From the NCBI GenBank assembly GCA_964580435.1, contig CAZOKP010000005.1, positions 5,613 to 69,167 on the forward strand: 63,555 nucleotides of DNA, written 5' to 3'. Both the position numbers and the translations under genes were made by a program. Shown piece after piece: positions 4,075-48,503 of this stretch (positions are counted from its first letter, which is position 1; each line of letters opens with the position of its first letter). Origin of the DNA: an uncultured Eubacteriales bacterium. Its GTDB lineage: Bacteria > Acidobacteriota > Aminicenantia > Aminicenantales > UBA8522. The notes under the pieces are model-generated. The model was not told the DNA's origin. It did not search any database and saw only the letters and a program-made list of their open reading frames with translations.

Positions 4075-4179
4075 GCCTCCCCAATTTGTTCTGACACGGG
4101 ACACCCCGGATTCCCGTATCTCTAAGTCCTGATTTCCCCTGGCTGGGCGACAAGCCCGCTTCAGGTTAGTTATAATTCG

Positions 4180-31295: not shown

Positions 31296-31324
31296 ATTCT
31301 ATCCGCGCCCCTCATTTTTGTCAA
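31296..31324 (-). promoter_or_regulatory. Sigma-70 promoter of proS, TTGACA-N17-TAGAAT
   Basis: Near-consensus with 17-bp spacer on the minus strand. Confidence 0.75.
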
Positions 31325-31408: not shown

Positions 31409-31447
31409 GAAATTCACCCCTGATTTCATCCAAAAGGGTGATTGACC
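31409..31447 (+). promoter_or_regulatory. Copy 1 of a 39-bp shared upstream element (palindrome TCATCC-AAAA-GGGTGA abutting a TTGACC -35)
   Basis: GAAATTCACCCCTGATTTCATCCAAAAGGGTGATTGACC; 35/39 identical to 48443-48481; candidate -10 CATCGT at 31465-31470 (17-bp spacer). Confidence 0.8.
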
Positions 31448-31500
31448 CATGAAAAAGGCCGTGGCATCGTAGGCTCTACACAAAGGAAAAGGAAGCGAAT

Positions 31501-31860
31501 ATGCGATCGAAATCCTCGCTCTTTCATCTGGACAAAGCAGAGAGGAAGGGCCAGGCCTTCAACCTTCCTCTCCCGACGGTCGTAGAAGGGCAAGATGCCG
31601 CGGGAAAGACATTCCAGGAAAAAACCGTGCTCTTCTATATCAGCCATAAGGGCGCTTCATTCAATCTGCCGAACGCCATCGCTCTTGGGTCCAAGCTGAA
31701 GCTGATCATCGACCTGCCCCCAGCATTGGCCGAAGATAAGAACCTGAAGCTCGTCATCAAGGGCAAAGTGGCTCTCGTGGAGGCTAATCATTCGCACCCC
31801 TCCAGACAGCGGGTCTCTCTGAGGTTTGAAAGCAAGTATTTTATCAAAGCGGACGATTGA
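31501..31860 (+). CDS. PilZ-like domain protein (degenerate motifs)
   Basis: Paralog of 33301 (FNLPLPTVVEG...GSKLKLIIDLP); RxxxR absent, YISHKG replaces NxSxxG. Confidence 0.7.
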   Translation: MRSKSSLFHLDKAERKGQAFNLPLPTVVEGQDAAGKTFQEKTVLFYISHKGASFNLPNAIALGSKLKLIIDLPPALAEDKNLKLVIKGKVALVEANHSHPSRQRVSLRFESKYFIKADD

Positions 31861-31980
31861 GGCCCCCCTGTCCTCAGTCGAAGGAAATGGATAGGCCTCT
31901 TGCCGGCGCGTTCAAGATCATCAAGACCGCGCCCAGAGGCAGGATGAAGCCAAGTTGCCTAATCTCTGTGGATGATAAGA

Positions 31981-32451
31981 ATGTCAAAAAAATCACCCTC
32001 TGATTCATCCCCAAGAGCGATTGAACTCAGAGAAGAAGCCGACGAAAATTGGTCTGCGGAAATGAACGAAAAGGAAGAACTCTCCAAACCCTCCACCCAT
32101 GGCGCGGCCAGAGCCGGGAAGAGAGAGCGCGCCTTCGAGCTCTCTCTCCCAGCTTTGGTTACGGGCGTGGATGCCCTGGAAAACAAGTTCAGGGAAAAAA
32201 CCCAAGTCTTGTCCATAAGCTCGGAAGAGGCTACGGTCTGGCTCAAGTCAAGAGTTATGCTGGGGTCTAAGCTGGACTTGGCCCTAGACATCCCCAAGAC
32301 GCTGATCCTGGAGAATCATTTCAAGCTTCGCCTCTCCGGCACGGTCATTCTCATGCAAAATGACTCGGCACGGGCTGGCAAAAAGCAGCTTGTATCCGTG
32401 CGGCTGGACAAAAAATTCCGCCTGCTTCCGATTCCTCCCTCGATCAATTAA
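31981..32451 (+). CDS. PilZ-like domain protein (degenerate motifs)
   Basis: FELSLPALVTG...GSKLDLALDIP; SISSEE replaces NxSxxG; start could be 31972, 31981 or later. Confidence 0.65.
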   Translation: MSKKSPSDSSPRAIELREEADENWSAEMNEKEELSKPSTHGAARAGKRERAFELSLPALVTGVDALENKFREKTQVLSISSEEATVWLKSRVMLGSKLDLALDIPKTLILENHFKLRLSGTVILMQNDSARAGKKQLVSVRLDKKFRLLPIPPSIN

Positions 32452-32488
32452 TAGACATCTCTCTTCCCGTCTTTGGGCAATTATTTCC

Positions 32489-32517
32489 TTGACAAGAATT
32501 CATCGATTTAATAGAAT
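32489..32517 (+). promoter_or_regulatory. Sigma-70 promoter of the LuxR-type regulator, TTGACA-N17-TAGAAT
   Basis: Near-consensus sequence and spacing. Confidence 0.75.
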
Positions 32518-32586
32518 TTTGCCTACCGGAGAATTGATATACCTCTTTGGCTCAGGGGTTAAGAAAGACCAAAGAGGGAGAGAACT

Positions 32587-33273
32587 ATGAATAAAAAACC
32601 AATAACCACGGAAGAAAAAAGAATCAAAATCCTCATTTTCTGTCCCTCTGAAATCATCCTCTCGGGCATCCTCAGAGCTCTGGAAGTGGACGCGGGGATT
32701 GAGATCACGAATGTAGAAAAGAATACGATCGAAACGTTCATGGATTCGATCAAAAAACTCAGGCCGCACGTCATCCTCTTTGCCAACACGGAGCCCCTGC
32801 CCAATATGAGGGAAATCTGCAAGGCGATCAAGGAGATCTCCAAGCTCCAGAGCAAATCCCAGTTGCTGATCCTGGGCAGTATTCCCTCCCATGAAGAAAT
32901 CGTCGGGCTCATCAATGCTGGCGCCCGGGGATATTTCGACCTCACCGACCCGTCCAGTCAACTCTCCGAAGCGATCCGCGTTATCCACAAAGGAGAAATC
33001 TGGCTTCCCCGGGACAAGATGAGCAGCATCATGGACCGGATCATCTCCGTGGTCGGAAGAGACCTCAAGGAAAAAACTCTGGACCAGCTAACCCCCACCG
33101 AATTCCAGGTCCTCAGGCTGATCGGGCAGGGCAAGAGCAACGATGAAATCGCCGAGATCCTTTTTATCAGTAAAAACACGGTCCGGTCTCATATCAAGAG
33201 CATCTATGCCAAGCTCGATACCCACAGCCGGTTGCAGCTGGCCCTTTATGCCATTAATTCTGCCCTATTTTAA
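32587..33273 (+). CDS. LuxR/NarL-family regulator with atypical (pseudo-)receiver domain, VpsT/CsgD-like
   Basis: HTH LTPTEFQVLRLIGQGKSNDEIA...TVRSHIKSIYAKL; receiver lacks acidic pocket, phospho-Asp and Lys; linker GEIWLPR. Confidence 0.85.
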   Translation: MNKKPITTEEKRIKILIFCPSEIILSGILRALEVDAGIEITNVEKNTIETFMDSIKKLRPHVILFANTEPLPNMREICKAIKEISKLQSKSQLLILGSIPSHEEIVGLINAGARGYFDLTDPSSQLSEAIRVIHKGEIWLPRDKMSSIMDRIISVVGRDLKEKTLDQLTPTEFQVLRLIGQGKSNDEIAEILFISKNTVRSHIKSIYAKLDTHSRLQLALYAINSALF

Positions 33274-33300
33274 TGAAACCTAAAAAAATCAGAGGTTGAG

Positions 33301-33696
33301 ATGAAGAAAGTTCAAAAATCCAAAAAGAGAATTCCCCTGCCTGTGGTCCGGACCAATCGACGAAGGGAATGGCGCTTTGACTTGCCCCTCCCGACGACCA
33401 TCGAGGGGAAACTCCCCCACGGAGAACAATTTAAAGAATTCACCACGCTCGAGAATATCAGCTCCACGGGAGCCTATTTCTGCCTGGATTCCGGCGTCAT
33501 CGTCGGCTCGAAGCTCAACCTTATGATCGACCTTCCCCCGAAGCTAACGGGAGGCAAAGAGGTTAAGCTCCATCTTGGGGGAATCACCGTCCGCCTTGAA
33601 GAACCGGACAAGAAAGGCAAGAGGCAAGGCGTGGCCATCCGCTTCAGCAAAGATTTCAATTTTGTTGAATCCGAAAAAAAGAAGAAATCAAAGTAA
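33301..33696 (+). CDS. PilZ domain protein (canonical c-di-GMP motifs)
   Basis: RREWR (RxxxR) and NISSTG (NxSxxG). Confidence 0.8.
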   Translation: MKKVQKSKKRIPLPVVRTNRRREWRFDLPLPTTIEGKLPHGEQFKEFTTLENISSTGAYFCLDSGVIVGSKLNLMIDLPPKLTGGKEVKLHLGGITVRLEEPDKKGKRQGVAIRFSKDFNFVESEKKKKSK

Positions 33697-33793
33697 TTTT
33701 CCGGTTCAGACCCGTCAGCCCGGATCTCATTCCTCAAGAATTGGCGAGTCTGGGCAGCGATGACATCATTCTGAAGAGCAGGCCGACCCCATC

Positions 33794-34423
33794 ATGAGCA
33801 TTTTGACCGTCGCGCTCACGGGAGGGATTGCGACAGGCAAGTCCGTCGTCGCCCGGATGCTAAAACTGCGCGCTTGCTATATCCACTCTGCCGATCGAGT
33901 CGCCCGCGACCTGATGAAACCCCGCCTCCCGGCCTGGATAAAAATAGTCTCTCACTTCGGCCCGGAGGTCCTGAATCCCGACCAAACAATTGATCGCTCC
34001 AAACTGGGTGTCATCATCTTCTCAAATAAAAAAGAGCGGCAGTTTCTCAACAGCCTCATTCACCCTCTCGTCCTGGAAAAGAAAATGGAGGCAATTCGGC
34101 GACTGGAGAAAAAAGGCCGCTACAAGATATTTGTGTCCGAGGCGGCTTTAACCGTCGAATCCGGGTTCGCCAGTTTCTTTGATAAAGTCATCGTTGTCCG
34201 CTGCGGAAAAGAGACGCAGATCCGGAGGCTGATGGGAAGGGATAAGATCAGCCGTGCCGAAGCCCTCAAGAAAATTCGTAGCCAGATGCCGCTGGAAGAA
34301 AAGCTGAAATATGCCGATTACGTGATCGACACATCCGGCACCTTGGACGAAACAGCCAGGCAGACGGAGGCTGTCTATCAAGGTCTTCTGTCCGATTACC
34401 GCAGGAAGTCGAAAACGTCCTAG
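33794..34423 (+). CDS. coaE: Dephospho-CoA kinase
   Basis: ALTGGIATGKS, ADRVAR, LNSLIHP, RSQMP, ADYVIDTSG. Confidence 0.95.
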   Translation: MSILTVALTGGIATGKSVVARMLKLRACYIHSADRVARDLMKPRLPAWIKIVSHFGPEVLNPDQTIDRSKLGVIIFSNKKERQFLNSLIHPLVLEKKMEAIRRLEKKGRYKIFVSEAALTVESGFASFFDKVIVVRCGKETQIRRLMGRDKISRAEALKKIRSQMPLEEKLKYADYVIDTSGTLDETARQTEAVYQGLLSDYRRKSKTS

Positions 34424-35364
34424 ACCAGCAGGGCGGCGGCCAAAAGGGGAATCATGATTTCGTGATGCCCGATAAAGTAAAACCCCTTCCCTTTTTTGCC
34501 CACGGGTCTCTGGACGACGTTTTGAGACGGACGATAGTGATGGATGAAATCAAAAACCGCGGTGGAAAAATCGTCCAGAGCCTTGCCCCTGTTTCTGACG
34601 AAGGATACCGCTTTGAGGAAGACTTCGGGCAGGATGACGGCTGAGCCGACGTTGATGAAGACTCCTCCTCCTTCAAGGCTTTCCACGAGAGAGCAGAAGA
34701 GAAAAAAATCAGCCAAGGATGTTTTTCCGATGGCCTCGCCGCTTGCTTCCGGATGGAAGTGGATCGTGTCTGTCCCCACAGCCACATGGACGCTGACGGG
34801 AATGCCAAGATCGGATGAAGCCGCCAGGAGGCTCAGGTGTTTATAAGGAAAGCGCGAGGCGGCAATCATTCTGCCGACTGCATCTCCCAACCCGATCCCC
34901 TGCTTGGCGCCCGCCCTTATGGCCCTGTTTAAAAGTTCCCCGGTTTCCTTGGCCATACCAAACGTCCCGTCTTTGACCCCGGAAGCGACATCCTCTGAAG
35001 TCCGGCCGGCAAAGGCGATTTCGAAGTCATGAATGATGCCGGCTCCATTCAGGGCCAGCCCGGTGACCCAGCCCTCTCTCATCAGCTGGATGATCACCGG
35101 GCTCAAACCCACCTTGATCACATGGGCGCCCAGGGCAAAAAGGATGGCTCTTTTTTTCGACTTGGCCGCCCGGACGAGAGAAATAAATTCTTTGAAATCC
35201 CTGGCGGCCAAAATGTTGGGAAGGCTGCCAAGAAATCCCTCCAGGCCGCTCGAGGGCGAATAATCCTTGGCGAAGTCTTTGACCTCGACTTTGCTCTTTC
35301 TCGCAAGGAGTGAATGGGTCCTCAATCCCGCCGAAGAGCGCTTCTGGGATGGTTTGTTCTTCAT
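34420..35364 (-). CDS. Conserved hypothetical protein, deoxyhypusine-synthase-like fold
   Basis: LGAHVIK, LNGAGIIHD, HVAVGTD, NVGSAVILPEVF resemble DHS-like NAD-binding segments. Confidence 0.55.
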   Translation of the reverse strand: MKNKPSQKRSSAGLRTHSLLARKSKVEVKDFAKDYSPSSGLEGFLGSLPNILAARDFKEFISLVRAAKSKKRAILFALGAHVIKVGLSPVIIQLMREGWVTGLALNGAGIIHDFEIAFAGRTSEDVASGVKDGTFGMAKETGELLNRAIRAGAKQGIGLGDAVGRMIAASRFPYKHLSLLAASSDLGIPVSVHVAVGTDTIHFHPEASGEAIGKTSLADFFLFCSLVESLEGGGVFINVGSAVILPEVFLKAVSFVRNRGKALDDFSTAVFDFIHHYRPSQNVVQRPVGKKGKGFYFIGHHEIMIPLLAAALLV

Positions 35365-35459
35365 GGCTGAATCTCCCCTGTCTCGAGAATCCGAGGATGT
35401 CCTCTCCTGCGTTTGCCGGAGAGTGGGTCGACGAGGTTATGCGCGAGGATCACTCGGGT

Positions 35460-35738
35460 TTATTTTTTGACCAGGGTGTTCTTCAGGTCTTGGCCGGAAC
35501 GGAACTTGATCCGTTTTCCCTTTTCTATCTTGATCTGTCTTTTCCGGCGGATATCCCGACCGAAGCCCGTTTTCTTGTTGACGACCTTGAAGCTCCCAAA
35601 TCCCCTGATCTCGATCTTCTGATTCTTGGTCAAGGCCTCTTTTAAGGCCGCCAATATGGATTCGACGATTAACAATGATTTGGCCCTGTTGAATTCCGAA
35701 TTCTTCTCAATAGCAAGGGCAATATCATTCTTAATCAT
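35460..35738 (-). CDS. HU/IHF family DNA-binding protein
   Basis: IEIRGFGSFKV, GRDIR arm, IKFRSG. Confidence 0.92.
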   Translation of the reverse strand: MIKNDIALAIEKNSEFNRAKSLLIVESILAALKEALTKNQKIEIRGFGSFKVVNKKTGFGRDIRRKRQIKIEKGKRIKFRSGQDLKNTLVKK

Positions 35739-35811
35739 GTGAATCTCCTCTGATCCGGTCGGACGATAGATAATAATTAATGAATCACAAATAAAAAGTC
35801 AAGACGTATTA

Positions 35812-35840
35812 TTGACTTGATTTTCTCGAGTTCATATAAT
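35812..35840 (+). promoter_or_regulatory. Sigma-70 promoter TTGACT-N17-TATAAT
   Basis: Near-consensus; -10 ends 9 nt before the nfeD ATG. Confidence 0.8.
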
Positions 35841-35849
35841 GAGAACACG

Positions 35850-37127
35850 ATGAAAAAAAATTCCCTTCTTCTCTTTTGCTTTGTTCTTTTGTCGCTCCAG
35901 GTCAACGCCGCGATTCTAAAAATTACGGTCGACGCTCCCATCCATCCCATCTCTTCTGAGTACATTATCAAGAGCATCGAACACGCGGAGAAAGAAAACG
36001 CCGGTTTGATCATCCTGGTCCTGAATACGCCGGGAGGTCTGGATTCCTCGATGCGGGAGATCATCGCGAAAATTCTCGTCTCCAAAGTGCCGCTGGCCAC
36101 TTACGTGAGCCCGAGCGGCGCTCGGGCCGCCTCGGCCGGTTTTTATATCGCCATCGCTAGCGATCTTTTCGTGATGGCTCCAGGGACTAGCACGGGGGCC
36201 GCCCATCCGGTCGGGGTTTCCCTCACCGGCCAAGGAATGGACAAGACCATGGAGGAGAAAGTCACCAATGACGCGGCTGCCTATATCAAAACCCTGGCTG
36301 AAAAAAGGGGAAGGTCCGTCCAGCCGTCGGAAGACGCTGTCAGGAAAAGCCTCTCTTATACAGAAAAGGAAGCCTTCGAGCTCGGGTTGATCGACCTCGT
36401 TGCCAAGAACGAGCAGGAGATCATCGATCATTTTGACAATAAAATCATCAAGCGATTCAACGGCGAAGACCTGCTGTTGCATCTCAAGGACGAACCCATC
36501 ATTGAAATCCCGATGTCGACCAGGCAGAAGTTTCTTCTCACCATTTCCAACCCTAACCTGGCTTACATCCTGCTTATGCTCGGGCTTCTCGGCCTCTATT
36601 TTGAGTTTTCTAACCCCGGGGCCATTCTGCCCGGGGTTATGGGAGGCATCTGTCTGCTTCTGGCCATATTCTCTTTCCAGATTTTGCCCATCAATTATGT
36701 CGGGCTCCTGCTCATCCTGCTGGCTATCGGGTTGTTCATCTTGGAGGTCAAGGTCCATAGTTATGGAATTCTTTCCGTCGGAGGAATAGCGGCTATGGTC
36801 ATCGGGTCCATCATGCTTATCAATGCGCCTATTCCGGAGCTCAGGCCCAGCCTTAGATTCGTCATTCCTGTGGCCGTCAGCTTTGGGGTGGTCTTTTTGT
36901 TCCTCGTCTTCCTGGTGATCCGGGCCCACGCCAAAAAGGTCCAAACGGGGAAGGAAGGGCTCATCGGCGAAATCGGTGTCGCTGAGACCGACCTCAACCC
37001 GGAGGGGAAGGTCTTTGTCCATGGGGAGCTGTGGAATGCCGAAACGACTGGAGAGATCCCCAGGGGCAGCCGAGTCAAGGTCATCCAGGTCTTGAACGGC
37101 CTTAAGATACGCGTGCAAAAAATCTGA
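35850..37127 (+). CDS. nfeD: NfeD family membrane-bound ClpP-class serine protease
   Basis: Signal peptide, LNTPGG, ARAASAG, TSTGAAHPV, TM region, C-terminal OB fold (GKVFVHGELWNA). Confidence 0.92.
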   Translation: MKKNSLLLFCFVLLSLQVNAAILKITVDAPIHPISSEYIIKSIEHAEKENAGLIILVLNTPGGLDSSMREIIAKILVSKVPLATYVSPSGARAASAGFYIAIASDLFVMAPGTSTGAAHPVGVSLTGQGMDKTMEEKVTNDAAAYIKTLAEKRGRSVQPSEDAVRKSLSYTEKEAFELGLIDLVAKNEQEIIDHFDNKIIKRFNGEDLLLHLKDEPIIEIPMSTRQKFLLTISNPNLAYILLMLGLLGLYFEFSNPGAILPGVMGGICLLLAIFSFQILPINYVGLLLILLAIGLFILEVKVHSYGILSVGGIAAMVIGSIMLINAPIPELRPSLRFVIPVAVSFGVVFLFLVFLVIRAHAKKVQTGKEGLIGEIGVAETDLNPEGKVFVHGELWNAETTGEIPRGSRVKVIQVLNGLKIRVQKI

Positions 37128-37152
37128 CTTGACATAGACTGAGGAGGTCAAA

Positions 37153-37917
37153 ATGATTACTTTTCCTATTATCGTCGTCGGTTTTGTCGTCCTATATTTG
37201 TTGAACTCGATCAAAATCTTAAGGGAATATGAACGCGGCGTTATCTTTCGCCTGGGACGCGTCCTCCCCCATCCCAAAGGCCCCGGTCTTATTTTTGTCT
37301 TTGCTCCGATCGACAGGATGATCAGGGTCAGCTTGAGGATTATTACCCTGGACATCCCGCCGCAAGATGTCATCACCAAGGACAACGTCTCGGTCAAGGT
37401 GAATGCCGTCGTATATTTCCGCGTCATGGACCCGCTCAAAGCGATCATCGAAGTCCAAGATTATCTTTATGCGACCTCCCAGCTTGCCCAGACGACCTTG
37501 CGCAGTGTGCTCGGCGAGGTCGAACTCGACGACCTCCTTTCTAAGAGAGAGAAGCTCAATGCCCAGCTCCAGGACATTCTGGACAAGCACACCGATCCCT
37601 GGGGGATCAAGGTCCAGCTCGTCGAAACAAAGCACGTTGACTTGCCCGACAACATGGTCAGGGCCATTGCCAAGCAGGCCGAGGCGGAAAGAGAAAGAAG
37701 GGCCAAGGTCATCCATGCCGATGGAGAGTTCCAAGCTGCTTCCAAGCTGACCGACGCCGCAGAGATCATCTCTCGAAATCCGCAGGCCCTTCAGCTACGC
37801 TATCTCCAGACCCTCACGGAGATCGCCGTCGAGAAGAATTCGACGATCGTCTTTCCCCTGCCCATCGAAATTTTGAAATCTTTTGGCTATGAGAAAGCGA
37901 AGTCCGAGAAACCATGA
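37153..37917 (+). CDS. Stomatin/slipin (SPFH) family protein
   Basis: [40 protein letters not shown]. Confidence 0.95.
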
Positions 37918-38549
37918 TGAAAAACAGAGAATTCAGAGAATTGCAGGTCTCCAGTACTCAGCTGGCCATTATATTTCTGGGGATTCTGATCATCGGGGTC
38001 ATCATCTTCCTGCTTGGAGTTTCTGTGGGGAAAAAGCACGCTAAAATCGCCCAGAAATCGAACCTCATCGCCCAGCAGCAGCCTGAGCAGGTCAAAGAGA
38101 AGATATCCCTCCCGGAGACAAAGCCGTTGCTGCAGCCCGCCAAGACATCCACGAGGCAGGCTGCCCCCGGTCAAAAACAGGCCCCCGTCGAAAAGCCCAA
38201 GGAAGAGCCAAAAGCAGCTCTTAAAGTCGAGCCCGAGAGAGAAACGGACAAGAAGGTGGAGCCCAAGCTGGAGGCAAAGGTCACCGAGAGTGTTCCCGCA
38301 GCGAAAACGAACCTTTATTACGTCCAAGTCGGTGCGCTCGCAGACAGGCCGGCTGCTTTATCCACGGCCCAAAAATTCAAGACTCAGGGCTACCCGGCCC
38401 TTATTTTAGACCCTCTCCCCACGGACAGAAAGCCTGTTTTCCGGGTGAGGATTGGGGGATTTCAAACCAAGGAAGAAGCAGAATCCGCCAGAACAAAGTT
38501 AGCCTCAGCGGCCGGAAGGAAAACAGATTATTTCATCGTCAGAGATTAA
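37914..38549 (+). CDS. SPOR domain-containing membrane-anchored protein
   Basis: N-terminal TM, Pro/Glu/Lys linker, YYVQVGAL...FRVRIGGF. Confidence 0.88.
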
Positions 38550-38563
38550 AGAATCCAGCGGCC

Positions 38564-40105
38564 ATGTCCTTTCTATTAGCCTGTTTAAGCGGCGCGCTTA
38601 CGGCTTTCTGCTTTCCCAAGATCAATTTATTCTTTCTGGCCTGGGTTTGTCTTATACCCCTGTTCTTTTCTCTGCTTAGAAAAAGGCCTGGGCGGTCATT
38701 CTTTCTGGGATTCTCGGGGGGTTTTGTCTATTACGCCATCCTGCTCTATTGGATCCCAGCGGTTCCGGCGCATTACGGCAATCTTTCTGCGATATTGAGC
38801 TTTCTCATATACCTTCTGCTTATCATTCTGATGGCCCTCTCCTGGGCAGGCTTTGCCTTTATTTTTGCTGCGCTGCGCTCAGCCTTCCCTCAGTCAGGCT
38901 TCATTTTGGCGCCTTTCATCTGGGTTGCCTTTGAATATATCTTCACCTTTTTCCTGACCGGTTTTCCCTGGGGCCTTTTGGGCTATAGTCAGGTAAAAAA
39001 TATCGCCTTTCTCCAGACGGCCTCAGTGGCGGGAGTATACGGGCTTTCCTTCGTGCTCGTCCTCCTCCAGAGCTTTTTTGTCCTGTCCCTAAAAAGCCGG
39101 AAGAGATGGCCTTTTTCCTTGGCCCTGGCGGCTGTTCTGGCTGTCCATTTGGCCGGCTTCCTCAGCCTCAAGGTCCCCGCCCCTTCGAAAGACACTTTCA
39201 AAGCGGCTGTGCTTCAGGGGAACGTTTCCTCGGACATTTACTGGGACCGCATTTCTGCGCCCGAGATCGAGGGCCTTTTCAAACAGCATCTCGACCTTAG
39301 CCGCCAGGCCTATCTGCAGGGGGCCAGGCTGATCATCTGGCCGGAATTTTCCGTCCCTCTCTGTTTTAGCTGCAACGAACCGCTCTACAGGTCTTTTAAG
39401 GAGACGCTTTTTCAATTTGTCAGGGAGACAAAGTGCACACTCCTTCTCGGCACCAACGAAACCGCTTCCGAAGGCGGTGAACTCCGTTATTTCAATACAG
39501 CCCTCTGCCTCAGCCCCGACCTCTCCATGACGCAATATTACAAAATGCATCTCGTTCCCTTTGGCGAGTACACTCCCTATAAGAAAATATTCTCTTTTAT
39601 TGAAAAGGTGACTCACGCGATCGGGGATGTAACTCCTGGCAAACAGCATGTCCTGCATTCTTTCGAGGGGAAAAAATTCGGTTCCCCTATCTGCTATGAG
39701 GTCATCTTTCCCAAGCTTGTTTGCAAATTTTCGGAAAAGGGCGCCGAATTCCTCGTGACCATCACCAACGACGGTTGGTATGGAACAAGCCCGGCTCCTT
39801 ACCAGCATTTCTTGATTGCCGTGTTCAGGGCGGTTGAGAACAGGCGTTTCCTGCTACGGGCCGCGACAACGGGCATAAGCGGAATCGTCGACCCCTGCGG
39901 GCGGATTCTCTCCCGCTCAGAGCTCATGACCCAGACCTATTTGACGGGAGATATTACGCCCCTTAAAAAACTCTCTTTCTATGCCCGCTTTGGCGACGTG
40001 CTTCCCGTCCTGAGCTTGACTTTGACCTGCATCTTCTTTATTCTGGCCTTGGCAAAGAGAGCCGATGAAAGAAAAAAAGCAGACCGCAGCAGACAAGTCA
40101 TCTGA
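38564..40105 (+). CDS. lnt: Apolipoprotein N-acyltransferase
   Basis: FPWGLLGYSQ, IWPEF, KMHLVPFGEY, ICYE, TNDGWYG, RAVENRR. Confidence 0.95.
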   Translation: MSFLLACLSGALTAFCFPKINLFFLAWVCLIPLFFSLLRKRPGRSFFLGFSGGFVYYAILLYWIPAVPAHYGNLSAILSFLIYLLLIILMALSWAGFAFIFAALRSAFPQSGFILAPFIWVAFEYIFTFFLTGFPWGLLGYSQVKNIAFLQTASVAGVYGLSFVLVLLQSFFVLSLKSRKRWPFSLALAAVLAVHLAGFLSLKVPAPSKDTFKAAVLQGNVSSDIYWDRISAPEIEGLFKQHLDLSRQAYLQGARLIIWPEFSVPLCFSCNEPLYRSFKETLFQFVRETKCTLLLGTNETASEGGELRYFNTALCLSPDLSMTQYYKMHLVPFGEYTPYKKIFSFIEKVTHAIGDVTPGKQHVLHSFEGKKFGSPICYEVIFPKLVCKFSEKGAEFLVTITNDGWYGTSPAPYQHFLIAVFRAVENRRFLLRAATTGISGIVDPCGRILSRSELMTQTYLTGDITPLKKLSFYARFGDVLPVLSLTLTCIFFILALAKRADERKKADRSRQVI

Positions 40106-41202: not shown

Positions 41203-41361
41203 CCCTTCGGTTTTTTCTTCAGCTCGTCCCAGGTCTGTCCTCTATCCTCAAGGCTCACGTGTCCCAGGGCCAGCCGTCTTGGCTCCGTAAGACCCTCAGA
41301 TCTCGACAAGCCTCTCAAATTTTTCTCCCGCTCTTATCGTCGGCTCCATCTTTTCTCCCCC

Positions 41362-41390
41362 TTGAATTCTTCCGCATAAAAAAGTAATAT
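41362..41390 (+). promoter_or_regulatory. Sigma-70-type promoter TTGAAT-N17-TAATAT
   Basis: 17-bp spacing upstream of DUF1844-ribF. Confidence 0.5.
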
Positions 41391-41474
41391 AGCCTTCTAA
41401 GAACATAACTTGGGCCCGAATAAATATTAATTCCTGCTTGCCCGATAGAGATAAAATCAACCAAGAGGATGATA

Positions 41475-41801
41475 ATGTCGGAAAAAGATTCTTCAGAGAA
41501 GGACCCGATAAAATCGGAAAACGGAGAATCCAAGAAGGAGTTCCTTCCGCCCCTCGATTTCAGTTCCATCGTCTTTCCGTTTTATACCCAAGCCCTGTTC
41601 AAGATGGGCATCCTGGAAGACACGACTGAGCCCAAGGGCGAAGAGAATGTGGAATTGGCCCGCCGGCTGATCGATATCCTTGACCTCCTGAAGGACAGGA
41701 CCAAGGGAAATCTCAATCCTGATGAGGAGAAATTCCTCCAATCGTGCCTCGAACAGCTGAAGATGCATTACTTGGAGAAGGCCAAGATCATTAAATACTG
41801 A
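41475..41801 (+). CDS. DUF1844 family protein
   Basis: LDFSSIV, ARRLIDILDLLKDRTKGNL, EEKFLQSCL. Confidence 0.8.
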   Translation: MSEKDSSEKDPIKSENGESKKEFLPPLDFSSIVFPFYTQALFKMGILEDTTEPKGEENVELARRLIDILDLLKDRTKGNLNPDEEKFLQSCLEQLKMHYLEKAKIIKY

Positions 41802-41805
41802 AGCC

Positions 41806-42732
41806 ATGCAGGTCTTTAAAGGACTCGATCGCTGGCCGCCTCCAACCCGTCCTGCGGCAGTAGCAATAGGGAACTTCGACGGCGTTCACCTCGGGCATCA
41901 AAAGATTCTGCGGTTCCTCGTCGATAGAGCCAGGGAGAGGCGACTTTATTCTCTTGTCCTGACATTCTCCCCCCATCCAGAAAGAGTTCTAGGCAGGAGC
42001 CGCATCGCCATGATTCAAACCCTGGCCCAGAGACTGGCGCGAATAAGGGCGCATGGCATCCAGGCCATTGTCGTCACGCCTTTCGACCGGAGGTTCTCGA
42101 GCTTGTCAGGCCAGGAATTTGTTCGGGAAATCATTGTCCGCTCTCTCCGAGCCAAGGAGGTTATTGTCGGGGAGAATTTCCGTTTTGGCCGCAACCGCTC
42201 CGGCACGATCGATGACCTTCGGCGACTCGGTTCAAGACTCGGATTTATCATTCATCCGATCCCGGCCGTTGCCCATAACGGCCAGGTCGTCAGCAGCAGT
42301 CTCATCCGGCTCCTCCTTGCTCAGGGGAAAATTAAAAACGCCAATGCCCTCCTGGGCCGGCCTTACGAAATCGATGGGACGGTCATAAAAGGTGCCTCGA
42401 GAGGGACATCTCTCGGGTTTCCCACCACCAACACTCAGACAATCAATGAAATCACGCCAGAAGGCGTCTTTTTCACAGAAGCACAAATCAGCCGCCGGAA
42501 CTATCCTTCCGTGACCAATATCGGGACTCGTCCGACGTTCGGAGAGCACACGCTTGAGATTGAATCCTTCCTTTTGGATTTTCAAGGAAATGCCTACCGA
42601 AAAAAGATCAGGCTTCGCTTTCTCAAAAAGCTCAGGGCTGAGCGAAAATTCCGCACCTCGCAAGCTCTGGTGAAGCGGATCCGTCAAGATATTGCCGCTG
42701 CCAAGAAATTCTTTGCTCACAGAAAGGATTGA
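41806..42732 (+). CDS. ribF: Bifunctional riboflavin kinase/FAD synthetase
   Basis: IGNFDGVHLGH, LTFSPHP, GENFRFG, LGFPT, NIGTRPTF. Confidence 0.96.
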   Translation: MQVFKGLDRWPPPTRPAAVAIGNFDGVHLGHQKILRFLVDRARERRLYSLVLTFSPHPERVLGRSRIAMIQTLAQRLARIRAHGIQAIVVTPFDRRFSSLSGQEFVREIIVRSLRAKEVIVGENFRFGRNRSGTIDDLRRLGSRLGFIIHPIPAVAHNGQVVSSSLIRLLLAQGKIKNANALLGRPYEIDGTVIKGASRGTSLGFPTTNTQTINEITPEGVFFTEAQISRRNYPSVTNIGTRPTFGEHTLEIESFLLDFQGNAYRKKIRLRFLKKLRAERKFRTSQALVKRIRQDIAAAKKFFAHRKD

Positions 42733-42757
42733 CTTTTTTCCCCGCTTGGTGCATTTT
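42729..42757 (+). promoter_or_regulatory. Sigma-70-type promoter TTGACT-N17-CATTTT
   Basis: 17-bp spacing, extended TG, upstream of pyrR. Confidence 0.45.
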
Positions 42758-42792
42758 CATGGGAGATTCGTCAAGAATTTAGGAGACTGCTC

Positions 42793-43347
42793 ATGGACGA
42801 AAAAATCAAAGCCAGGGTCATGGACGCCGGCAAAATTAAAAGATCCCTTGACCGGATGACGACCGAGATCCTGGAGCGGAACCGCAACCTGAAAAACCTG
42901 GTGATCGTGGGCATAAGAACCAGGGGAATTTATTTGGGCAAGCGTATATCCCAGCTGATCAAAGAGCTTGAAAAAATCGATATTCCCGTGGGAGTTTTAG
43001 ACATCACTCTCTACCGGGATGATTTCTCCGAGCTCGAAACTCAGCACATGGTCCAAAAAACGGAAATCGACTTTCCCATTTCCAAAAAAGATGTTCTTCT
43101 CATCGACGATGTCCTTTTTACAGGACGGACGATCAGGGCGGCCATGGACAGCCTTTTTGACCTGGGACGACCGCAAAGTATCCAGCTTCTTGTGCTCATC
43201 GACCGCGGACACCGCGAGCTGCCCATTCGCGCAGACTATACGGGAAAAGTCCTTCCCACGTCCAAGAGGGAGATCGTCCAGGTAAGGCTCATGGAAATCG
43301 ATGAGACGGATGAGGTCCTCATCACCGAGTCCGCCAAGCTCGAATAG
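42793..43347 (+). CDS. pyrR: Bifunctional pyr operon regulator/uracil phosphoribosyltransferase
   Basis: [36 protein letters not shown]. Confidence 0.96.
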
Positions 43348-43354
43348 GAGACGC

Positions 43355-44296
43355 ATGTTGGAATTTAAGCAGAGACATCTCCTGGGCATTCAGAATCTCG
43401 ACGTCTCGGATATCATGACGATTTTGGATACTGCTGAATCCCTGGCCGAGATCTCCACCCGAGAGGTCAAAAAAGTCCCGACCTTGAGAGGCAAGACCGT
43501 CGTCAACCTGTTTTTTGAGCCGAGTACGAGGACGCGCAGCTCCTTTGAGCTGGCCGCCAAAAGACTGAGCGCCGACATCATCAACTTCAGCCAGCAGACG
43601 AGCAGCGTGGTCAAGGGAGAGACATTGAAGGACACGGTTCTCAACCTTGAGGCCATGAACCCCGACGCCCTGATCATCAGGCACTCATGTTCTGGGGCTC
43701 CCTACTTCGTTTCGACATTCTGCCGCTCTCACGTCATCAACGCGGGTGACGGATCGCACGAACATCCTACCCAGGCCCTGCTCGATGCCTTCACCATAAG
43801 GCAACAGAAGAAAAGCTTCAAGAACCTTAAGGTCGTTATCGTTGGCGACATCCTGCACAGCAGGGTGGCCCGCTCGAACGTCTTTCTACTTCAGAAAGTG
43901 GGAGCTCAGGTGACTCTTGTCGGCCCCCCTCCTCTTCTTCCGGCAGAGTTCAAGAATTTCGGCACGCAAATCTCTTACGACCTGGACAGAGCTCTGGAAG
44001 GGGCGGACGTCATCATGATGCTTCGCATTCAGAAGGAAAGGCAGAAAGCCAACTTCTTTCCGTCCACTCGAGAATACCGTAACCTCTATTGCCTGACAGA
44101 AAAAAGATACTGTCTGGCCAATAAAGATGCCATTATCATGCATCCAGGCCCGATTAACCGCGGAGTGGAAATCTCCTCGGAAATGGCCGATTCGGTGAAA
44201 TCAGTCATCTTGAAACAAGTCGAAAATGGGATCTCGATTCGGATGGCTGTCCTCTATCTTCTCTTAGGAGGAAAAGAGCGTGAGACTGCTGATTAA
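43355..44296 (+). CDS. pyrB: Aspartate carbamoyltransferase catalytic subunit
   Basis: [35 protein letters not shown]; AGGAG RBS before 43355. Confidence 0.97.
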
Positions 44297-45560
44297 AAAC
44301 GGAAGAGTCGTTGACCCCTCTTCTGGGATAGATGAGACCCTGGATATCCTTGTCGACAGGGGTAAGATCGTCGACCTCAGAGCCAAGATCGAAGCAGATA
44401 ATGCCCAGGTCGTCGATGCTTCAAGGCTCGTCGTGGCTCCTGGTTTCATCGATATGCACGCCCATCTCAGAGAGCCCGGTCAGGAAGACAAGGAGGACAT
44501 TTTCACGGCCTCCCTTGCTGCCGCCAAAGGAGGGTTCACTTCTCTCTGTGCCATGCCCAACACCCATCCGGTCAATGACAGCCGAGGTGTGACGGAATAT
44601 ATCCTTTCCGAAGCGAACAAGAGGGCCCGAGTGAATATCTTCCCGGTCGCAGCCATCACCATGAACCTCAAGGGAGAGGAGCTTACGGATATGGCCGATC
44701 TTGTCAGCGCCGGCGCCGTGGCCTTCTCTGACGATGGGAAGTGTATCCAGAACAGTCTTGTGATGAGACGGGCTCTGGAGTACTCGAATTTCCTCCAGGC
44801 GCTAATCATTGACCATTGCGAGGATTCGAGCCTCAGCCAGGACGGGCTCATGCATGAGGGCTTCTCTTCTCATCTCTTCGGGCTCGAAGGCATCCCCGCC
44901 TCAGCCGAAGATATAATGGTTGCGCGGGACGTCATCCTGGCCGAAGCGGCGAACGCCCGAATCCATATCGCTCACCTCAGCACTCGCGGCGCCGTTTATC
45001 TCGTTCGGGAAGCCAAGAAAAGAAAAGTCAAGGTCACGGCCGAGGTCACGCCGCATCATTTGATCCTCACCGACTCAGCTCTCGAGAGCTACAGCACCAA
45101 TCTTAAGGTCAATCCTCCCTTGCGTGGCCAGGACGATGTTCAGGCCCTTCTAGCTGCCGTCAAGGAAGGCGCGATCGATGTCTTCGCCACCGACCACGCG
45201 CCCCATTCACCGGAGGAAAAGGACGTCGAGTTCGACCGGGCACCGTTTGGCATCAACGGCCTGGAGACAGCGGTTTCTTTGCTCTTGGACAAATTGGTGA
45301 ACAAAAACATCATCTCCTTGCCGCGGTTCGTGGAGATGATATCAACCCGGCCGGCCCAGATCCTGGGCCTCAAGGATAAAGGCCGCATCGCAGCGGGCGC
45401 GGATGCAGACCTGACCATCCTCAACCTGCACAAAGAGGTCGTTGTGGACGTCCATGGATTTCTCTCCAAAAGCCGGAACAATCCCTTTCACGGCTGGAAG
45501 CTGAGAGGAGCTCCAACAATGACAATCGTCGCCGGAAAGATCGTTGATCCCTGGTCATAA
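44280..45560 (+). CDS. pyrC: Dihydroorotase (type I)
   Basis: [34 protein letters not shown]. Confidence 0.96.
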
Positions 45561-45571
45561 GCCCCAAAAAT

Positions 45572-46312
45572 ATGACCGCGAATCTGGCCCAGCTTGAGAA
45601 AGCCATCGGCGTTCATTTTCGAGATCAAGAGCTGCTGCTCCGGGCGTTGACCCATAGTTCTTATGCCTATGAAAATCAGCCCAAAGGTCTGACGGACAAT
45701 GAGGTCCTGGAATTCCTTGGAGATTCGGTCGTCGGGCTTGTGTTGGCCGATTTTTTCTGCGCCACCTACCCCGGCGCTGCCGAAGGCGAGCTCTCCAAGT
45801 ACAAAGCGGCGGCGGCCAGCACCCTGTCTCTTTCCCAGTTTGCCAAAAAAATCAAGCTCGATAAATACATCCTTCTAGGAATAGGAGAGGAAAGAAGCGG
45901 CGGCCGCAAAAAAAGGACCATTCTGGCCGGAGCCTTGGAGGCCCTGGTGGGCGCGGTCTATTTGGATCAAGGCTATGATAGAGCCCGGAGACTGCTCCTC
46001 CCGCTCCTCGATAAATCCTACAAGAAAGTGGACAGCCACAAGTTCCTGATCAACAATTATAAGTCCGCCCTTCAGGAACATTTTCAGAAGGAGAACCTTC
46101 CTGCGCCCGTTTATAAGACTTTGACTTCGGTCGGACCAGACCACAAAAAGACCTTTTTCGTGGAGGTCTGTCTCGGGCATTATCCTCTGGCCAAGGCCAA
46201 GGGCTTCTCTAAAAAGAGCGCCGAGCAGAAGGCGGCGCAGATTGCCCTAAGGAGTTTGCTCGGGAAAAAAATGAAGACCCTGACCAGCGAAACGTTTATC
46301 CTGAAAAAATGA
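45572..46312 (+). CDS. rnc: Ribonuclease III
   Basis: ALTHSSY, NEVLEFLGDSV, EALVGAVYLD, dsRBD (YKSALQE, GPDHKK). Confidence 0.96.
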   Translation: MTANLAQLEKAIGVHFRDQELLLRALTHSSYAYENQPKGLTDNEVLEFLGDSVVGLVLADFFCATYPGAAEGELSKYKAAAASTLSLSQFAKKIKLDKYILLGIGEERSGGRKKRTILAGALEALVGAVYLDQGYDRARRLLLPLLDKSYKKVDSHKFLINNYKSALQEHFQKENLPAPVYKTLTSVGPDHKKTFFVEVCLGHYPLAKAKGFSKKSAEQKAAQIALRSLLGKKMKTLTSETFILKK

Positions 46313-46647
46313 TCCGAAGCTACGATTTCGGCGCCATGGTGATAGACGGGCAAGAATATTTCGCCGACTTGGTCATCTTGCCCCGAAAGATCAATTCGGC
46401 GTGGTGGCGCAAAGAGGGACACAAGCTCGCCTTGGTGGACCTTGAGGATGTGTTGAAAGAAGATATCGAAGCCCTTGTCGTCGGGACGGGATTCTTCGGC
46501 CTGATGAAGGTGCAGCAGGATGTTCTTGAAGCGGCCCGCGTGAAAGGCCTTATCCTCCACATCGAAAAGACCCAAAAGGCGGTGCAGATCTTTAATCAGC
46601 TTTTTTCGCAGATAAAAACAGCTGGCGCGTTCCACCTCACCTGTTGA
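46309..46647 (+). CDS. Mth938/DUF498-like protein
   Basis: IRSYDFGAMVIDG, LVVGTG, C-terminal FHLTC. Confidence 0.85.
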   Translation: MIRSYDFGAMVIDGQEYFADLVILPRKINSAWWRKEGHKLALVDLEDVLKEDIEALVVGTGFFGLMKVQQDVLEAARVKGLILHIEKTQKAVQIFNQLFSQIKTAGAFHLTC

Positions 46648-46661
46648 AGCGAGAAAAGAAC

Positions 46662-47291
46662 ATGATTAAATGCTCCCGTTGCAGAGAGAGAAAAGCGAAA
46701 AGGCTTTGCCCGGCTCTGGGCAACGACCTCTGTCCGCTCTGCTGCGGAATCCTGAGGGAAAAGAAAATCCATTGTCCGGCCGACTGTTCCTTTCTGATTA
46801 AGCACAAACCCTACCAAGAGAAGAAGGTCATCGAGAAAAAGCCGACCTTCTCCGCAGACATCCTCCAGGATGAAAGGCTCAACTGGCTGACCTTGAACAT
46901 CGAAGCCCCACTCGAGGAATATGGAGAAAGAGACCGCGCCTTTGCCGACAGAGAGGCGATTCTGGCCCTCGAATATGCCAAAGAAAAAGTGGAGAAAGGA
47001 AAATCAGCCCTTGTCCTCCCGAAAGAAGAAGACAAACTGAAAAATGATCTGGGGGAGGCAATATTCCAGAACATTGAGCAGTGCCATTACCAAAGGAAAA
47101 TTATTCTTCCCCAAGGCCTGGAAACATACAAAAAAGAAGAAAAGCTAAAATGCCTGGAAAATGCCATCGTGGCGGTTAAGCATCTGGCCAAGAGAAATAT
47201 CCGGGGCAGGAATTACATCGAGGACCTCAGCCGGCGTTTCGCCAGGATCAAAGACGCCTCCGAGCAAAAAAGAATCATCAGCCCGGCCTGA
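46662..47291 (+). CDS. Hypothetical protein with N-terminal 8-Cys cluster
   Basis: CSRC...CPAL...CPLCC...CPADC in the first 42 aa. Confidence 0.7.
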   Translation: MIKCSRCRERKAKRLCPALGNDLCPLCCGILREKKIHCPADCSFLIKHKPYQEKKVIEKKPTFSADILQDERLNWLTLNIEAPLEEYGERDRAFADREAILALEYAKEKVEKGKSALVLPKEEDKLKNDLGEAIFQNIEQCHYQRKIILPQGLETYKKEEKLKCLENAIVAVKHLAKRNIRGRNYIEDLSRRFARIKDASEQKRIISPA

Positions 47292-47302
47292 GCCTCATCG
47301 GC

Positions 47303-48322
47303 TCAACCGCTCATCATTTCGGCAATGGGCTGAAGAGCAGGAATATTGCTGCAAATGATCTTGACCACGGCCATAAGAGGAACAGCCAGGATCATCCCGG
47401 GGATCCCCCACAGCCAGCCCCAGAAAATGAGAGAAAGGAGTACCACCAGCGGGCTCAGCCCCAGCCCTTGCCCCATCATCTTCGGCTCCAAAACATTGCC
47501 TATGACGACATCGATAACGATGAGAATAAGGAAAATCCATAAAGTGGGCCAGAGGCTGTTCAATTGAACGGCCGCAGCCAGAACGCATAAGGCCAGCGCC
47601 ACGACCGATCCCAGGCTGGGAATGTAGTTGAGAACAAACGTCAGGAAGCCAAGGACGATTGCATAATCGACGCCAAAGATGGCCAGGACGGCTGTCGTGA
47701 TGATTCCCGAGATGATGCTGATACCAGTTTTTATGATCAAGTACTTCTGGATTTGACCATCGATGTTATCGATGATCTGGTTGACCTTCTTTGCCCGGGT
47801 CGGAGAAAACGATTTATCCACCTTGACCTTGAGCTTGCCCCGTCCCGCCAGCATAAAGACAAGAAAGACAAAAATCAGGGCGAACGTAGAGAAAAATGAA
47901 AAAATTCTATCCAGAGAAGTCAGGACCAGAGAGGCCAATTTATGGGGATTGAGACTCTTGCTCCAGGCCCAGGGATCCCAATTCTCCTCGGTCAGCTTTA
48001 ATTCTTGCCTTACCGATTGAAGGAACTCATTCAGTTTCTCGCTGTACTGGGGCAATGAGTTGGCAAAATCTTTGCCGCTGGTATAGATGAGGATGCCGAA
48101 AAGATAAAGGACAAAAAAAGCGACCACAACGATAAAAAGGAGGGCCAGGCCTCGAGGAATCTTTAGTCGAGTTAGGAAATCCAAGGCCGGAGAGAGGATG
48201 AAGTAGAACAGAATGGCCAGGAAAAAAGGAAAAAAAACTGGCTTGGCCAGCCGCAGGATAACGCCCAGGACAACAACCAGGATCACTCCTGAAGTGATGG
48301 CAACAATCTTGTTATCTTCCAT
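47303..48322 (-). CDS. AI-2E family transporter
   Basis: PFFLA, LNYIPSLG, GNVLEPK, GLSPLVVLLSLIFWGWLWGIPGMILAVP. Confidence 0.93.
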   Translation of the reverse strand: MEDNKIVAITSGVILVVVLGVILRLAKPVFFPFFLAILFYFILSPALDFLTRLKIPRGLALLFIVVVAFFVLYLFGILIYTSGKDFANSLPQYSEKLNEFLQSVRQELKLTEENWDPWAWSKSLNPHKLASLVLTSLDRIFSFFSTFALIFVFLVFMLAGRGKLKVKVDKSFSPTRAKKVNQIIDNIDGQIQKYLIIKTGISIISGIITTAVLAIFGVDYAIVLGFLTFVLNYIPSLGSVVALALCVLAAAVQLNSLWPTLWIFLILIVIDVVIGNVLEPKMMGQGLGLSPLVVLLSLIFWGWLWGIPGMILAVPLMAVVKIICSNIPALQPIAEMMSG

Positions 48323-48414
48323 TAGATTTTATATTATACATTTTCTCTCTGAAATATTGAACTGGAATAGGTGAAATCGGCCTCTCCGTTCTCCCCTTCC
48401 CTTAAGAGCTCTCT

Positions 48415-48430
48415 TCACCCCTCCGGGTGA
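48415..48430. promoter_or_regulatory. Perfect palindromic box TCACCC-CTCC-GGGTGA
   Basis: Same 6-4-6 palindrome as in the shared 39-bp element, 45 bp upstream of the promoter-proximal box. Confidence 0.7.
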
Positions 48431-48442
48431 TGTTCCCATCCT

Positions 48443-48503
48443 GAAATTCACCCCAGTTTTCACCCAAAAGGGCGATTGACCGGGCTCAGGGAGCGGCTAA
48501 AAT
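48443..48503 (+). promoter_or_regulatory. Copy 2 of the 39-bp element (48443-48481) plus promoter TTGACC-N16-TAAAAT
   Basis: GAAATTCACCCCAGTTTTCACCCAAAAGGGCGATTGACC; box at 48460-48475 abuts the -35 at 48476-48481; -10 at 48498-48503. Confidence 0.8.

Follow-up and report, generated by a model that had tools for sequence, protein, structure and literature searches.

At the Escherichia coli yeaR promoter, NarL binds a single site of two inverted heptamers separated by 2 bp (7-2-7), whose centre at -43.5 places it directly before the -35 element, and at the ogt promoter it uses 7-2-7 sites at -44.5 and -77.5 (PMC10853779). NarL contacts bases via Lys188, Val189 and Lys192 and the DNA backbone via His190 (PMC10853779). 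Other regulators with a comparable DNA-binding domain are linked to the second messenger cyclic di-GMP (c-di-GMP). The c-di-GMP motif of VpsT is W[F/L/M][T/S]R, and QstR and BrpT, which carry WLPR, act independently of c-di-GMP (PMC6237807). In Pseudomonas aeruginosa, the single-domain PilZ adaptor TssZ binds the LasR/LuxR-type regulator HinK and blocks its DNA binding, and does so more weakly at high c-di-GMP (PMC10912698). Here, we describe a 39-bp element that occurs twice in a stretch of 63,555 nucleotides (nt) of Aminicenantes DNA (contig CAZOKP010000005.1 of assembly GCA_964580435.1, positions 5,613 to 69,167 of the forward strand; hereafter the window), once before a cluster of PilZ and LuxR-type genes (site 1) and again 17 kb away before an operon for a hybrid kinase, a predicted diguanylate cyclase and an Hpt protein (site 2). 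The element is probably a promoter-proximal operator array of TCACCCC heptamers that is bound by the NarL-type regulator encoded next to site 1.

Read directly, positions 31409-31447 (GAAATTCACCCCTGATTTCATCCAAAAGGGTGATTGACC) and 48443-48481 (GAAATTCACCCCAGTTTTCACCCAAAAGGGCGATTGACC) agree at 35 of 39 positions, as a first-pass annotation of this DNA had claimed. Both also show the layout described there, a TCACCC half-site followed 12 bp on by a 6-4-6 dyad that abuts TTGACC. The two dyads are imperfect, with one mismatch apiece from TCACCC-N4-GGGTGA, and the third palindrome, which had been reported as perfect, does read as such. The parts of the two sites are as follows.

31414-31420, + strand: far half-site of site 1, TCACCCC, starting 12 bp before the dyad; TC[A/C]CCC is (near-)invariant in 44 distinct orthologous sites
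31426-31441, + strand: proximal dyad of site 1, TCATCC-AAAA-GGGTGA, or as 7-2-7, TCATCCA-AA-AGGGTGA; predicted centre about -43.5
31442-31447, + strand: -35 hexamer of site 1, TTGACC, kept in all orthologous copies of the site but one (L016, TTGACG)
31462-31470, + strand: extended -10 of site 1, TGgCATCGT, 17 bp after the -35; predicted start near 31477
48415-48430, + strand: distal dyad of site 2, TCACCC-CTCC-GGGTGA, perfect; predicted centre about -87.5
48448-48454, + strand: far half-site of site 2, TCACCCC, conserved in orthologs
48460-48475, + strand: proximal dyad of site 2, TCACCC-AAAA-GGGCGA; predicted centre about -42.5
48476-48503, + strand: core promoter of site 2, TTGACC-16-TAAAAT, promoter-scan score 10/12; predicted start near 48510

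As read from the aligned sites, the repeat unit of the array is the TCACCCC heptamer, two inverted copies of which stand in 7-2-7 geometry immediately 5' of the -35 element. Every aligned site contains the heptamer pair TCAYCCN-NN-GGGGTGA, 16 bp in all, and a third heptamer lies 12 bp upstream of the dyad at both sites; at site 1 this far half-site is preceded by a conserved AAT[T/A] (31410-31413). The invariant core of the element consists of GG[T/C]GATTGACC together with the far TC[A/C]CCC. The palindrome on which the first-pass annotation had built is present, but its left arm is the least conserved part of the element.

A degenerate 39-mer that fits both copies matches the window at these two places only, and no match was obtained in 100 shuffles. 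With up to two mismatches, the dyad pattern has eight matches in the window versus 2.35 expected, a number reached by 0 of 100 shuffles, and TCACC-N6-GGTGA at one mismatch has seven matches versus 1.6 expected, four of them outside promoters. These four weak dyads (116-131, 2713-2728, 43734-43749 and 54307-54322, each one mismatch from TCACC-N6-GGTGA) all lie within open reading frames, including DUF362 and a pyrB-like gene, and look like non-functional chance occurrences. The heptamer TCACCCC itself is rarer in the window than expected (four copies versus 9.0), and three of the four copies fall within the two regulatory regions, the fourth being at 20822.

The predicted -10 elements of both loci are conserved at 16-17 bp from TTGACC, which puts the dyad centre at -42.5 to -43.5 and the far half-site near -59 relative to the predicted starts; the starts are hexamer-based predictions, and all centre positions rest on them. 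In the orthologs of site 1, the block 17 bp past TTGACC reads TGn[C/G]A[T/A]nnT, an extended -10 with A at hexamer position 2, T at position 6 and a first base other than T. In the orthologs of site 2, whose -35 hexamer occupies 48476-48481, TA[A/G]AAT is kept at 16-17 bp from TTGACC. Two further promoters belong to the neighbourhood of site 1.

32489-32517, + strand: the regulator gene's own promoter, TTGACA-17-TAGAAT, 11/12 against the sigma-70 consensus, conserved in orthologous loci
31324-31296, - strand: ProRS promoter, TTGACA-17-TAGAAT, 11/12

Since these two housekeeping-type promoters in the same DNA score 11/12, sigma-70 rules apply in this organism. The regulator gene need not depend on site 1, because its own near-consensus promoter lies directly upstream; a terminator scan of the PilZ/LuxR cluster found nothing that separates its genes. 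The ProRS promoter of the window (minus strand, 31296-31324) is about 90 bp from site 1, and in some lineages (e.g. L073) the ProRS -35 is just 4 nt from the far half-site. The same factor might affect proS too.

The conservation of site 1 was followed in 80 loci with regulator orthologues (80-99% identity), which were obtained by a protein-guided scan of metagenome contigs. Site 1 is found before the first PilZ gene in every locus that reaches about 1.2 kb upstream (54 distinct sequences), with the profile aAATaTCACCC..g..TTCATCctaAGGGGTGATTGACCg, then 'gGcc.tGgcAt..Tag'. High information is limited to aAATaTCACCC..TTCATCctaAGGGGTGATTGACC and the -10, the flanks being unconserved, and GGGGTGATTGACC is practically invariant among the copies. 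The dyad has a constant right arm, GGGTGA, and a left arm that differs among copies (TCATCC, TCACCG, TCACCT); upstream of it, the far half-site occurs as TCACCC or TCCCCC. In some genomes (L026, 4075-4126; L193, 2948-2981), the second gene of the cluster has a full composite element of its own, with a GGCGA arm in L193.

For site 2, eight kinases with 93, 75, 69, 63, 60, 59, 50 and 40% identity, representing nine loci, were picked by protein alone. All nine loci carry the element in the form TCACC[C/T]-N6-TCACC-N6-GGCGATTGACC-N16/17-TA[A/G]AAT, and all nine keep the synteny of an AI-2E transporter gene on the minus strand and the kinase-GGDEF-Hpt operon on the plus strand, with the element in between. 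The distal dyad of site 2 is perfect in L085 and L165, has one mismatch in L081 and takes TCACC-N6-GGTGA forms in L172, L188 and L190; in other lineages it is degenerate or absent. The copies at site 1 always read GGTGA, and the right arm of site 2 reads GGCGA in all nine orthologs, from which it follows that the two copies have been kept separately and not homogenised by conversion. The first-pass annotation had made its proposal depend on conservation upstream of orthologs, and the element is indeed kept at both loci.

A genome-wide scan, which had also been called for, was performed with the 34-bp pattern TCMCC-N7-TCAYC-N6-GGYGATTGACC on one genome per species (596 Gb). By our own arithmetic, about two matches are expected by chance at uniform composition. 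At least 119 stretches were found and, among the matches listed, to which the following counts also refer, all are from Aminicenantes-type metagenome-assembled genomes (MAGs), so that the motif is not one that occurs frequently at random positions. When 120 sites were sorted by their flanking genes, 55 corresponded to site 1 and at least 20 to site 2; five more precede kinase or GGDEF genes and four precede PilZ genes, in both cases without further context, and 36 are other sites. The kinase and GGDEF group includes REC-GGDEF (L152, L170, L200) and REC-REC (L201) genes. A third class accounts for 15 of the 36 others and has the form GGGTGA-gata-TCACCT-N6-TCACCC-tta-GGGGTGA-TTGACC; about 66 nt downstream a stand-alone 125-residue PilZ protein is encoded, with canonical RxxxR and DxSxxG motifs (RKDKR, DISLSG; Pfam 2.8e-15). 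The remaining others precede genes for REC-TonB_C proteins (L189, L198), a GntR regulator (L122), a sugar epimerase, outer membrane and SH3 proteins, a secreted protease, agmatinase-like proteins, TPR proteins and unknowns. Several MAGs have at least three strict sites, and many sites show an additional GGGTGA or a complete dyad upstream, at N4, N7 or N16-17.

In one MAG (L103, about 2546-4600, oriented), the composite element stands before the gene of a PilB/MshE-like T2SSE ATPase with an MshEN domain. MshEN is a domain family known for c-di-GMP binding, and the position of the element before this MshEN-type pilus ATPase would tie the regulon to type IV pili. Many of the records that bear such sites, L087, L119, L133, L176 and L202 among them, are labelled 'uncultured Eubacteriales', 'Clostridiales bacterium', 'Anaerolineae', 'Spirochaetota' or 'Candidatus Desulfaltia'. 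Most of their sites lie within ProRS-PilZ-LuxR synteny, and the taxonomic labels look wrong.

Conservation shows that the array marks a small predicted regulon across Aminicenantes, which comprises the pilZ-pilZ-(luxR-pilZ) cluster, the kinase/REC-GGDEF/Hpt operon and the stand-alone canonical PilZ gene. GGDEF, receiver, MshEN-ATPase and envelope genes would be further, lineage-specific members. The proposal of the first-pass annotation, that a shared box beside the -35 places a c-di-GMP writer operon and PilZ readers under one co-regulating factor, gains support from this comparative evidence. The same holds for its claim of a previously undescribed regulon. Other Aminicenantes genomes have this composite box before additional PilZ, GGDEF, kinase and MshEN-ATPase genes.

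The names of homologues assign this DNA to Candidatus Aminicenantes. By Pfam, the order at the first locus is ProRS (minus strand), PilZ, PilZ-like, LuxR/GerE regulator, PilZ and CoaE, and at the second AI-2E-family transporter (minus strand), hybrid kinase, REC-GGDEF and Hpt. The genes that matter for the regulon are listed below.

31501-31860, + strand: PilZ protein 1 (PilZ1), 119 amino acids (aa); Pfam PilZ 8.9e-05, 23.2 bits versus a cut-off of 22.5
31972-32451, + strand: PilZ-like protein 2, 159 aa; no Pfam match, 34% identity to PilZ1
32587-33273, + strand: NarL/LiaR-type candidate regulator, 228 aa; pseudo-receiver and LuxR/GerE helix-turn-helix (HTH), Pfam GerE 1.1e-20
33301-33696, + strand: PilZ protein 3 (PilZ3), 131 aa; Pfam PilZ 1.2e-05, starting 27 nt past the regulator gene
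48538-51936, + strand: hybrid histidine kinase; Pfam PAS-PAS-GAF-PAS-HisKA-HATPase-REC-REC
51933-52865, + strand: REC-GGDEF predicted diguanylate cyclase; Pfam GGDEF 3.4e-43
52858-53250, + strand: Hpt phosphotransfer protein, by Pfam

The candidate regulator aligns end to end with LiaR/VraR, DevR and NarL, and its sequence matches in the PDB are LiaR (5hev, 1.6e-23, residues 13-226), DevR and NarL. The moderate-confidence AlphaFold2 (AF2) model (overall pLDDT, the confidence score of the model, 71.7) shows a receiver fold with the five-strand, five-helix (beta-alpha) pattern (pLDDT 70-88), a linker helix (142-160) and a four-helix HTH (helices 170-227). In Foldseek, LiaR (31% identity), VraR, RcsB and NarL rank first. 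Compared with LiaR, all receiver active-site residues are replaced (the two acidic D by C19 and P20, the acceptor D by A66, T by G97 and K by L119), and the replacing residues show little or no variation among 34 orthologs. The regulator therefore cannot be a phospho-acceptor; it is an atypical, phosphorylation-blind member of the NarL/FixJ family.

In the same 34 orthologues, which are 80-98% identical overall, residues 136-228 are almost all invariant and the rest of this region is at least 90% conserved, so that an invariant HTH mirrors the invariant GGGGTGA of the sites. R200, S201, H202 and K204 align with Lys188, Val189, His190 and Lys192 of NarL, and the base-contact positions are basic and invariant. 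None of the three core site classes has another conserved DNA-binding gene beside it. In one high-GC sublineage (18 of 69 distinct loci), the regulator's own promoter is preceded by one to three direct repeats of TCACCC(C), spaced with a 10-bp period and ending about 6 bp short of the -35; the lineage of the window is without them. Because the regulator is the only DNA-binding protein of the conserved core, the 7-2-7 site at about -43.5 is NarL-like, the contact residues are basic and invariant, and TCACCCC repeats occur at the regulator's own promoter, a dimer of this adjacent 228-aa NarL/LiaR-family protein is the fairly probable binder. The first-pass annotation had named it as the obvious candidate, which is a reasonable choice in view of its place in the core and the repeats at its promoter in one sublineage.

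The first-pass annotation was essentially right about the identity of the genes, but as c-di-GMP readers two of the cluster's three PilZ-type proteins carry degenerate motifs. PilZ1 has RKGQA for RxxxR and YISHKG for [D/N]xSxxG (across loci RK[G/D/E]Q[A/I/V] and [Y/F][I/M]SH.G), and PilZ-like 2, which aligns with the other PilZ proteins despite the absent Pfam match, has KRERA and SISSEE (across loci KRER. and.IS[A/S][E/Q]E). The degeneracy is itself conserved across loci, and the two proteins may be non-binding PilZ-fold adaptors. Of the three, PilZ3 alone has canonical motifs (RREWR and NISSTG), which are present in no fewer than 75 of 78 loci. In the REC-GGDEF protein, the receiver Asp is intact, and the active site reads GGDEI in place of GG[D/E]EF; an intact RKSD I-site precedes it by five residues. 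The writer operon is variable (L207, L208, P0182): some lineages have an extra REC-GGDEF gene first and Hpt-REC-Hpt last, and one encodes the kinase and the GGDEF protein as a single fusion of 1408 aa.

Direct sensing of c-di-GMP by the regulator in the manner of VpsT was considered on account of the segment 'GEIWLPRD'. Its W139-L-P-R142 is invariant in orthologs and is the variant found in QstR and BrpT; the equivalence to the VpsT motif comes from the alignment ranges with 3kln, not from a residue-level alignment, and a short-segment PDB search with this piece of the regulator did not return VpsT. With this variant and a fold nearer to LiaR/VraR than to VpsT, the VpsT-like lead is weakened, and the suggestion that the regulator itself senses c-di-GMP is unlikely to hold. 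The precedent of TssZ and HinK suggests that c-di-GMP may reach the regulator through PilZ3. As the receiver is dead and WLPR is a non-binding variant, the input probably comes from a partner.

In the mechanism that we favour, a dimer of the regulator would bind the 7-2-7 dyad just upstream of the -35 element and help RNA polymerase, as NarL does at yeaR and ogt. The activity of the regulator would be set by a partner protein, for which the canonical PilZ3, encoded 27 nt downstream, is the best candidate. Activation would be the somewhat likelier sign of regulation, since the dyad position matches that of NarL activation sites, with repression keeping a substantial share. In a more far-reaching version, the phosphorelay of hybrid kinase, Hpt and REC-GGDEF would make c-di-GMP, PilZ3 would read it and gate the phosphorylation-dead regulator via its pseudo-receiver, and the regulator on the TCACCCC heptamers beside the -35 would drive the writer operon and the reader genes, by which a loop between c-di-GMP synthesis and transcription would be closed. 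That Aminicenantes possess such a phylum-wide, self-contained c-di-GMP feedback circuit, with a PilZ adaptor in place of phosphorylation as the input of a response regulator, is a tentative and rather doubtful extension.

Several points weigh against activation by the adjacent regulator. A weak -35 element is the rule at activator-dependent promoters, NarL's yeaR included. Here the core promoter is good at both sites (TTGACC with an extended -10, or with TAAAAT), so that repression or modulation may be at work. The heptamer differs from the TACYYMT of NarL, with a C-run 1 bp nearer to the dyad centre, and the model has no explanation for the function of the far half-site and its 12-bp offset. 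The assignment of the binder by adjacency and putative autoregulation is a standard inference, short of proof, and with no heptamer at the regulator promoter in the lineage of the window, autoregulation there would need read-through from site 1. The scan pattern, which demanded TTGACC and three half-sites, was biased to this architecture.

That the LuxR-type protein binds the array but acts as a repressor is somewhat unlikely. It would occlude the region used by the C-terminal domain of the RNA polymerase alpha subunit (alpha-CTD/UP region) or loop the DNA between the dyads at -43 and -87 of intrinsically strong promoters, until a signal releases it. The near-consensus core promoters (10/12 at site 2, TTGACC and a TGn-extended -10 at site 1) would fit this behaviour, the extra upstream GGGTGA or dyad at site 2 and many other sites could allow looping, and TssZ-HinK provides the precedent of a PilZ adaptor that blocks a LuxR-type factor (PMC10912698). 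However, the array stops exactly at the -35 and in no class intrudes on any part of the core promoter (-35, spacer, -10) or on the predicted start. Its position is that of NarL activation sites, and the -10 elements of site 1 and the third class lack the first T (CATnnT, GAAAAT), like promoters that need help. Alternatively, another transcription factor could bind the same conserved array and control the same regulon, with the LuxR-type gene merely one of the regulated genes. Several families, CRP/FNR and TetR among them, use dyads of 16 bp, TCAC...GTGA resembles a CRP half-site in inverted orientation, the regulator promoter of the window's lineage (32489-32517) has no heptamers, and one genome (L122) has a GntR gene among the targets. 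We nevertheless consider a different factor unlikely. No other DNA-binding gene is conserved beside the three core site classes, a 7-2-7 site just upstream of the -35 is a signature of the NarL family, the HTH of the candidate is invariant with basic residues at the NarL base-contact positions, and in one sublineage heptamer repeats stand before the candidate's own promoter.

Two further explanations dispense with an operator. The near-invariance of GGYGATTGACC, and the final C of TTGACC where housekeeping promoters in the same DNA have TTGACA, could point to an extended promoter element, an unusually long -35, for an alternative sigma factor. This is very unlikely, as the -10 elements differ by class (CATnnT with TG, TAAAAT, GAAAAT) and fit sigma-70 rules at 16-17 bp, the conserved part reaches to -63 and -95 with dyad-related heptamers in repeat, which are found in other arrangements as well, and no sigma or anti-sigma gene is among the regulon members. 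It is scarcely credible that the copies resemble each other for reasons unrelated to regulation, be it a recent duplication, gene conversion, a dispersed repeat, a mobile element, or a hairpin or riboswitch in a transcript, even though they share 90% identity across 39 bp in one genome and the dyad could form a 6-bp hairpin. Across the phylum, both copies persist in their respective syntenic positions with the locus-specific GGTGA or GGCGA kept, which excludes a mobile repeat or a recent duplication, the likeness ends at the box edges, and the dyad lies upstream of the -35. An Rfam scan of the whole window at gathering threshold gave no match, and the window contains no tRNA either. A hairpin function of the dyad was rejected: in 44 distinct orthologous sites its two variable positions change without compensation. 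All nine distinct site-2 sequences have an A-C mismatch in the dyad, and the paired fraction is no better than in shuffles (90/500).

Regulation by the adjacent NarL-type protein would be, in kind, an ordinary transcription-factor regulon and thus a solid new example rather than a new principle; its attractive feature is that a c-di-GMP writer is connected with readers. Aminicenantes (OP8) are abundant in sediments, and we know of no cultured representative. A full-text literature search returned no paper that mentions Aminicenantes together with c-di-GMP. The sequence-defined operator, the candidate regulator and the conserved list of targets provide a hypothesis for how c-di-GMP synthesis could be coupled to receptors and surface functions, and this hypothesis can be tested wholly with synthetic genes in a heterologous host. 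A response regulator that has lost phosphorylation but ranks with the best-conserved proteins around it also raises the question of its input.

Compared with known systems, the analogy to the lux box and LuxR with its acyl-homoserine lactone (AHL) ligand, which the first-pass annotation had drawn, extends to a dyad with a predicted centre near -42 before a sigma-70 promoter and to the HTH superfamily. It is weakened by the receiver-like N-terminus of the candidate, which has no Autoind_bind match, by a dyad of 16 instead of 20 bp, and by the extra half-sites. With VpsT of Vibrio cholerae and CsgD, which couple transcription to c-di-GMP and biofilm, the candidate shares a receiver-like domain joined to a GerE HTH and independence from phosphorylation. 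A resemblance of the element to the CsgD box (CGGGKGAGNKA) was also considered. VpsT matches its C-terminal half in sequence (3kln, E 9.4e-13) and ranks 21st in Foldseek, and a diguanylate-cyclase gene and surface functions are among the controlled genes, which are predicted targets here. Unlike VpsT, it has WLPR for W[F/L/M][T/S]R, is nearer to LiaR/VraR (31% identity) than to VpsT (18%), and uses an apparently unrelated DNA motif. TssZ and HinK offer a parallel in the pairing of a stand-alone canonical PilZ protein with a regulator that has a LuxR-type HTH; the pairing here is a genetic one (a 27-nt gap, kept in at least 75 loci), and the regulator contains a pseudo-receiver and not an autoinducer-type domain.

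The likeness to NarL is the most detailed. The candidate belongs to the same NarL/FixJ family with a LuxR-type HTH and has basic residues at the positions of Lys188 and Lys192. Its presumed site is a 16-bp inverted heptamer pair with a 2-bp gap that abuts the -35, with a predicted centre at -42.5 to -43.5. One promoter has a second upstream dyad (site 2 here, ogt there), and the half-sites are C-rich in both systems (TCACCCC here, TACCCCT-type in NarL). The consensus of the NarL heptamer is TACYYMT, from which TCACCCC differs in sequence, with a C-run 1 bp nearer to the centre. Also unlike NarL, there is a third half-site, in direct repeat, 12 bp upstream, and the spacing to the distal dyad is 45 bp and not 33 bp; the -35 is near consensus and not weak, and the regulator cannot, by its residues, be phosphorylated. 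Finally, the putative targets here are genes of c-di-GMP signalling, whereas those of NarL are genes of nitrate respiration.

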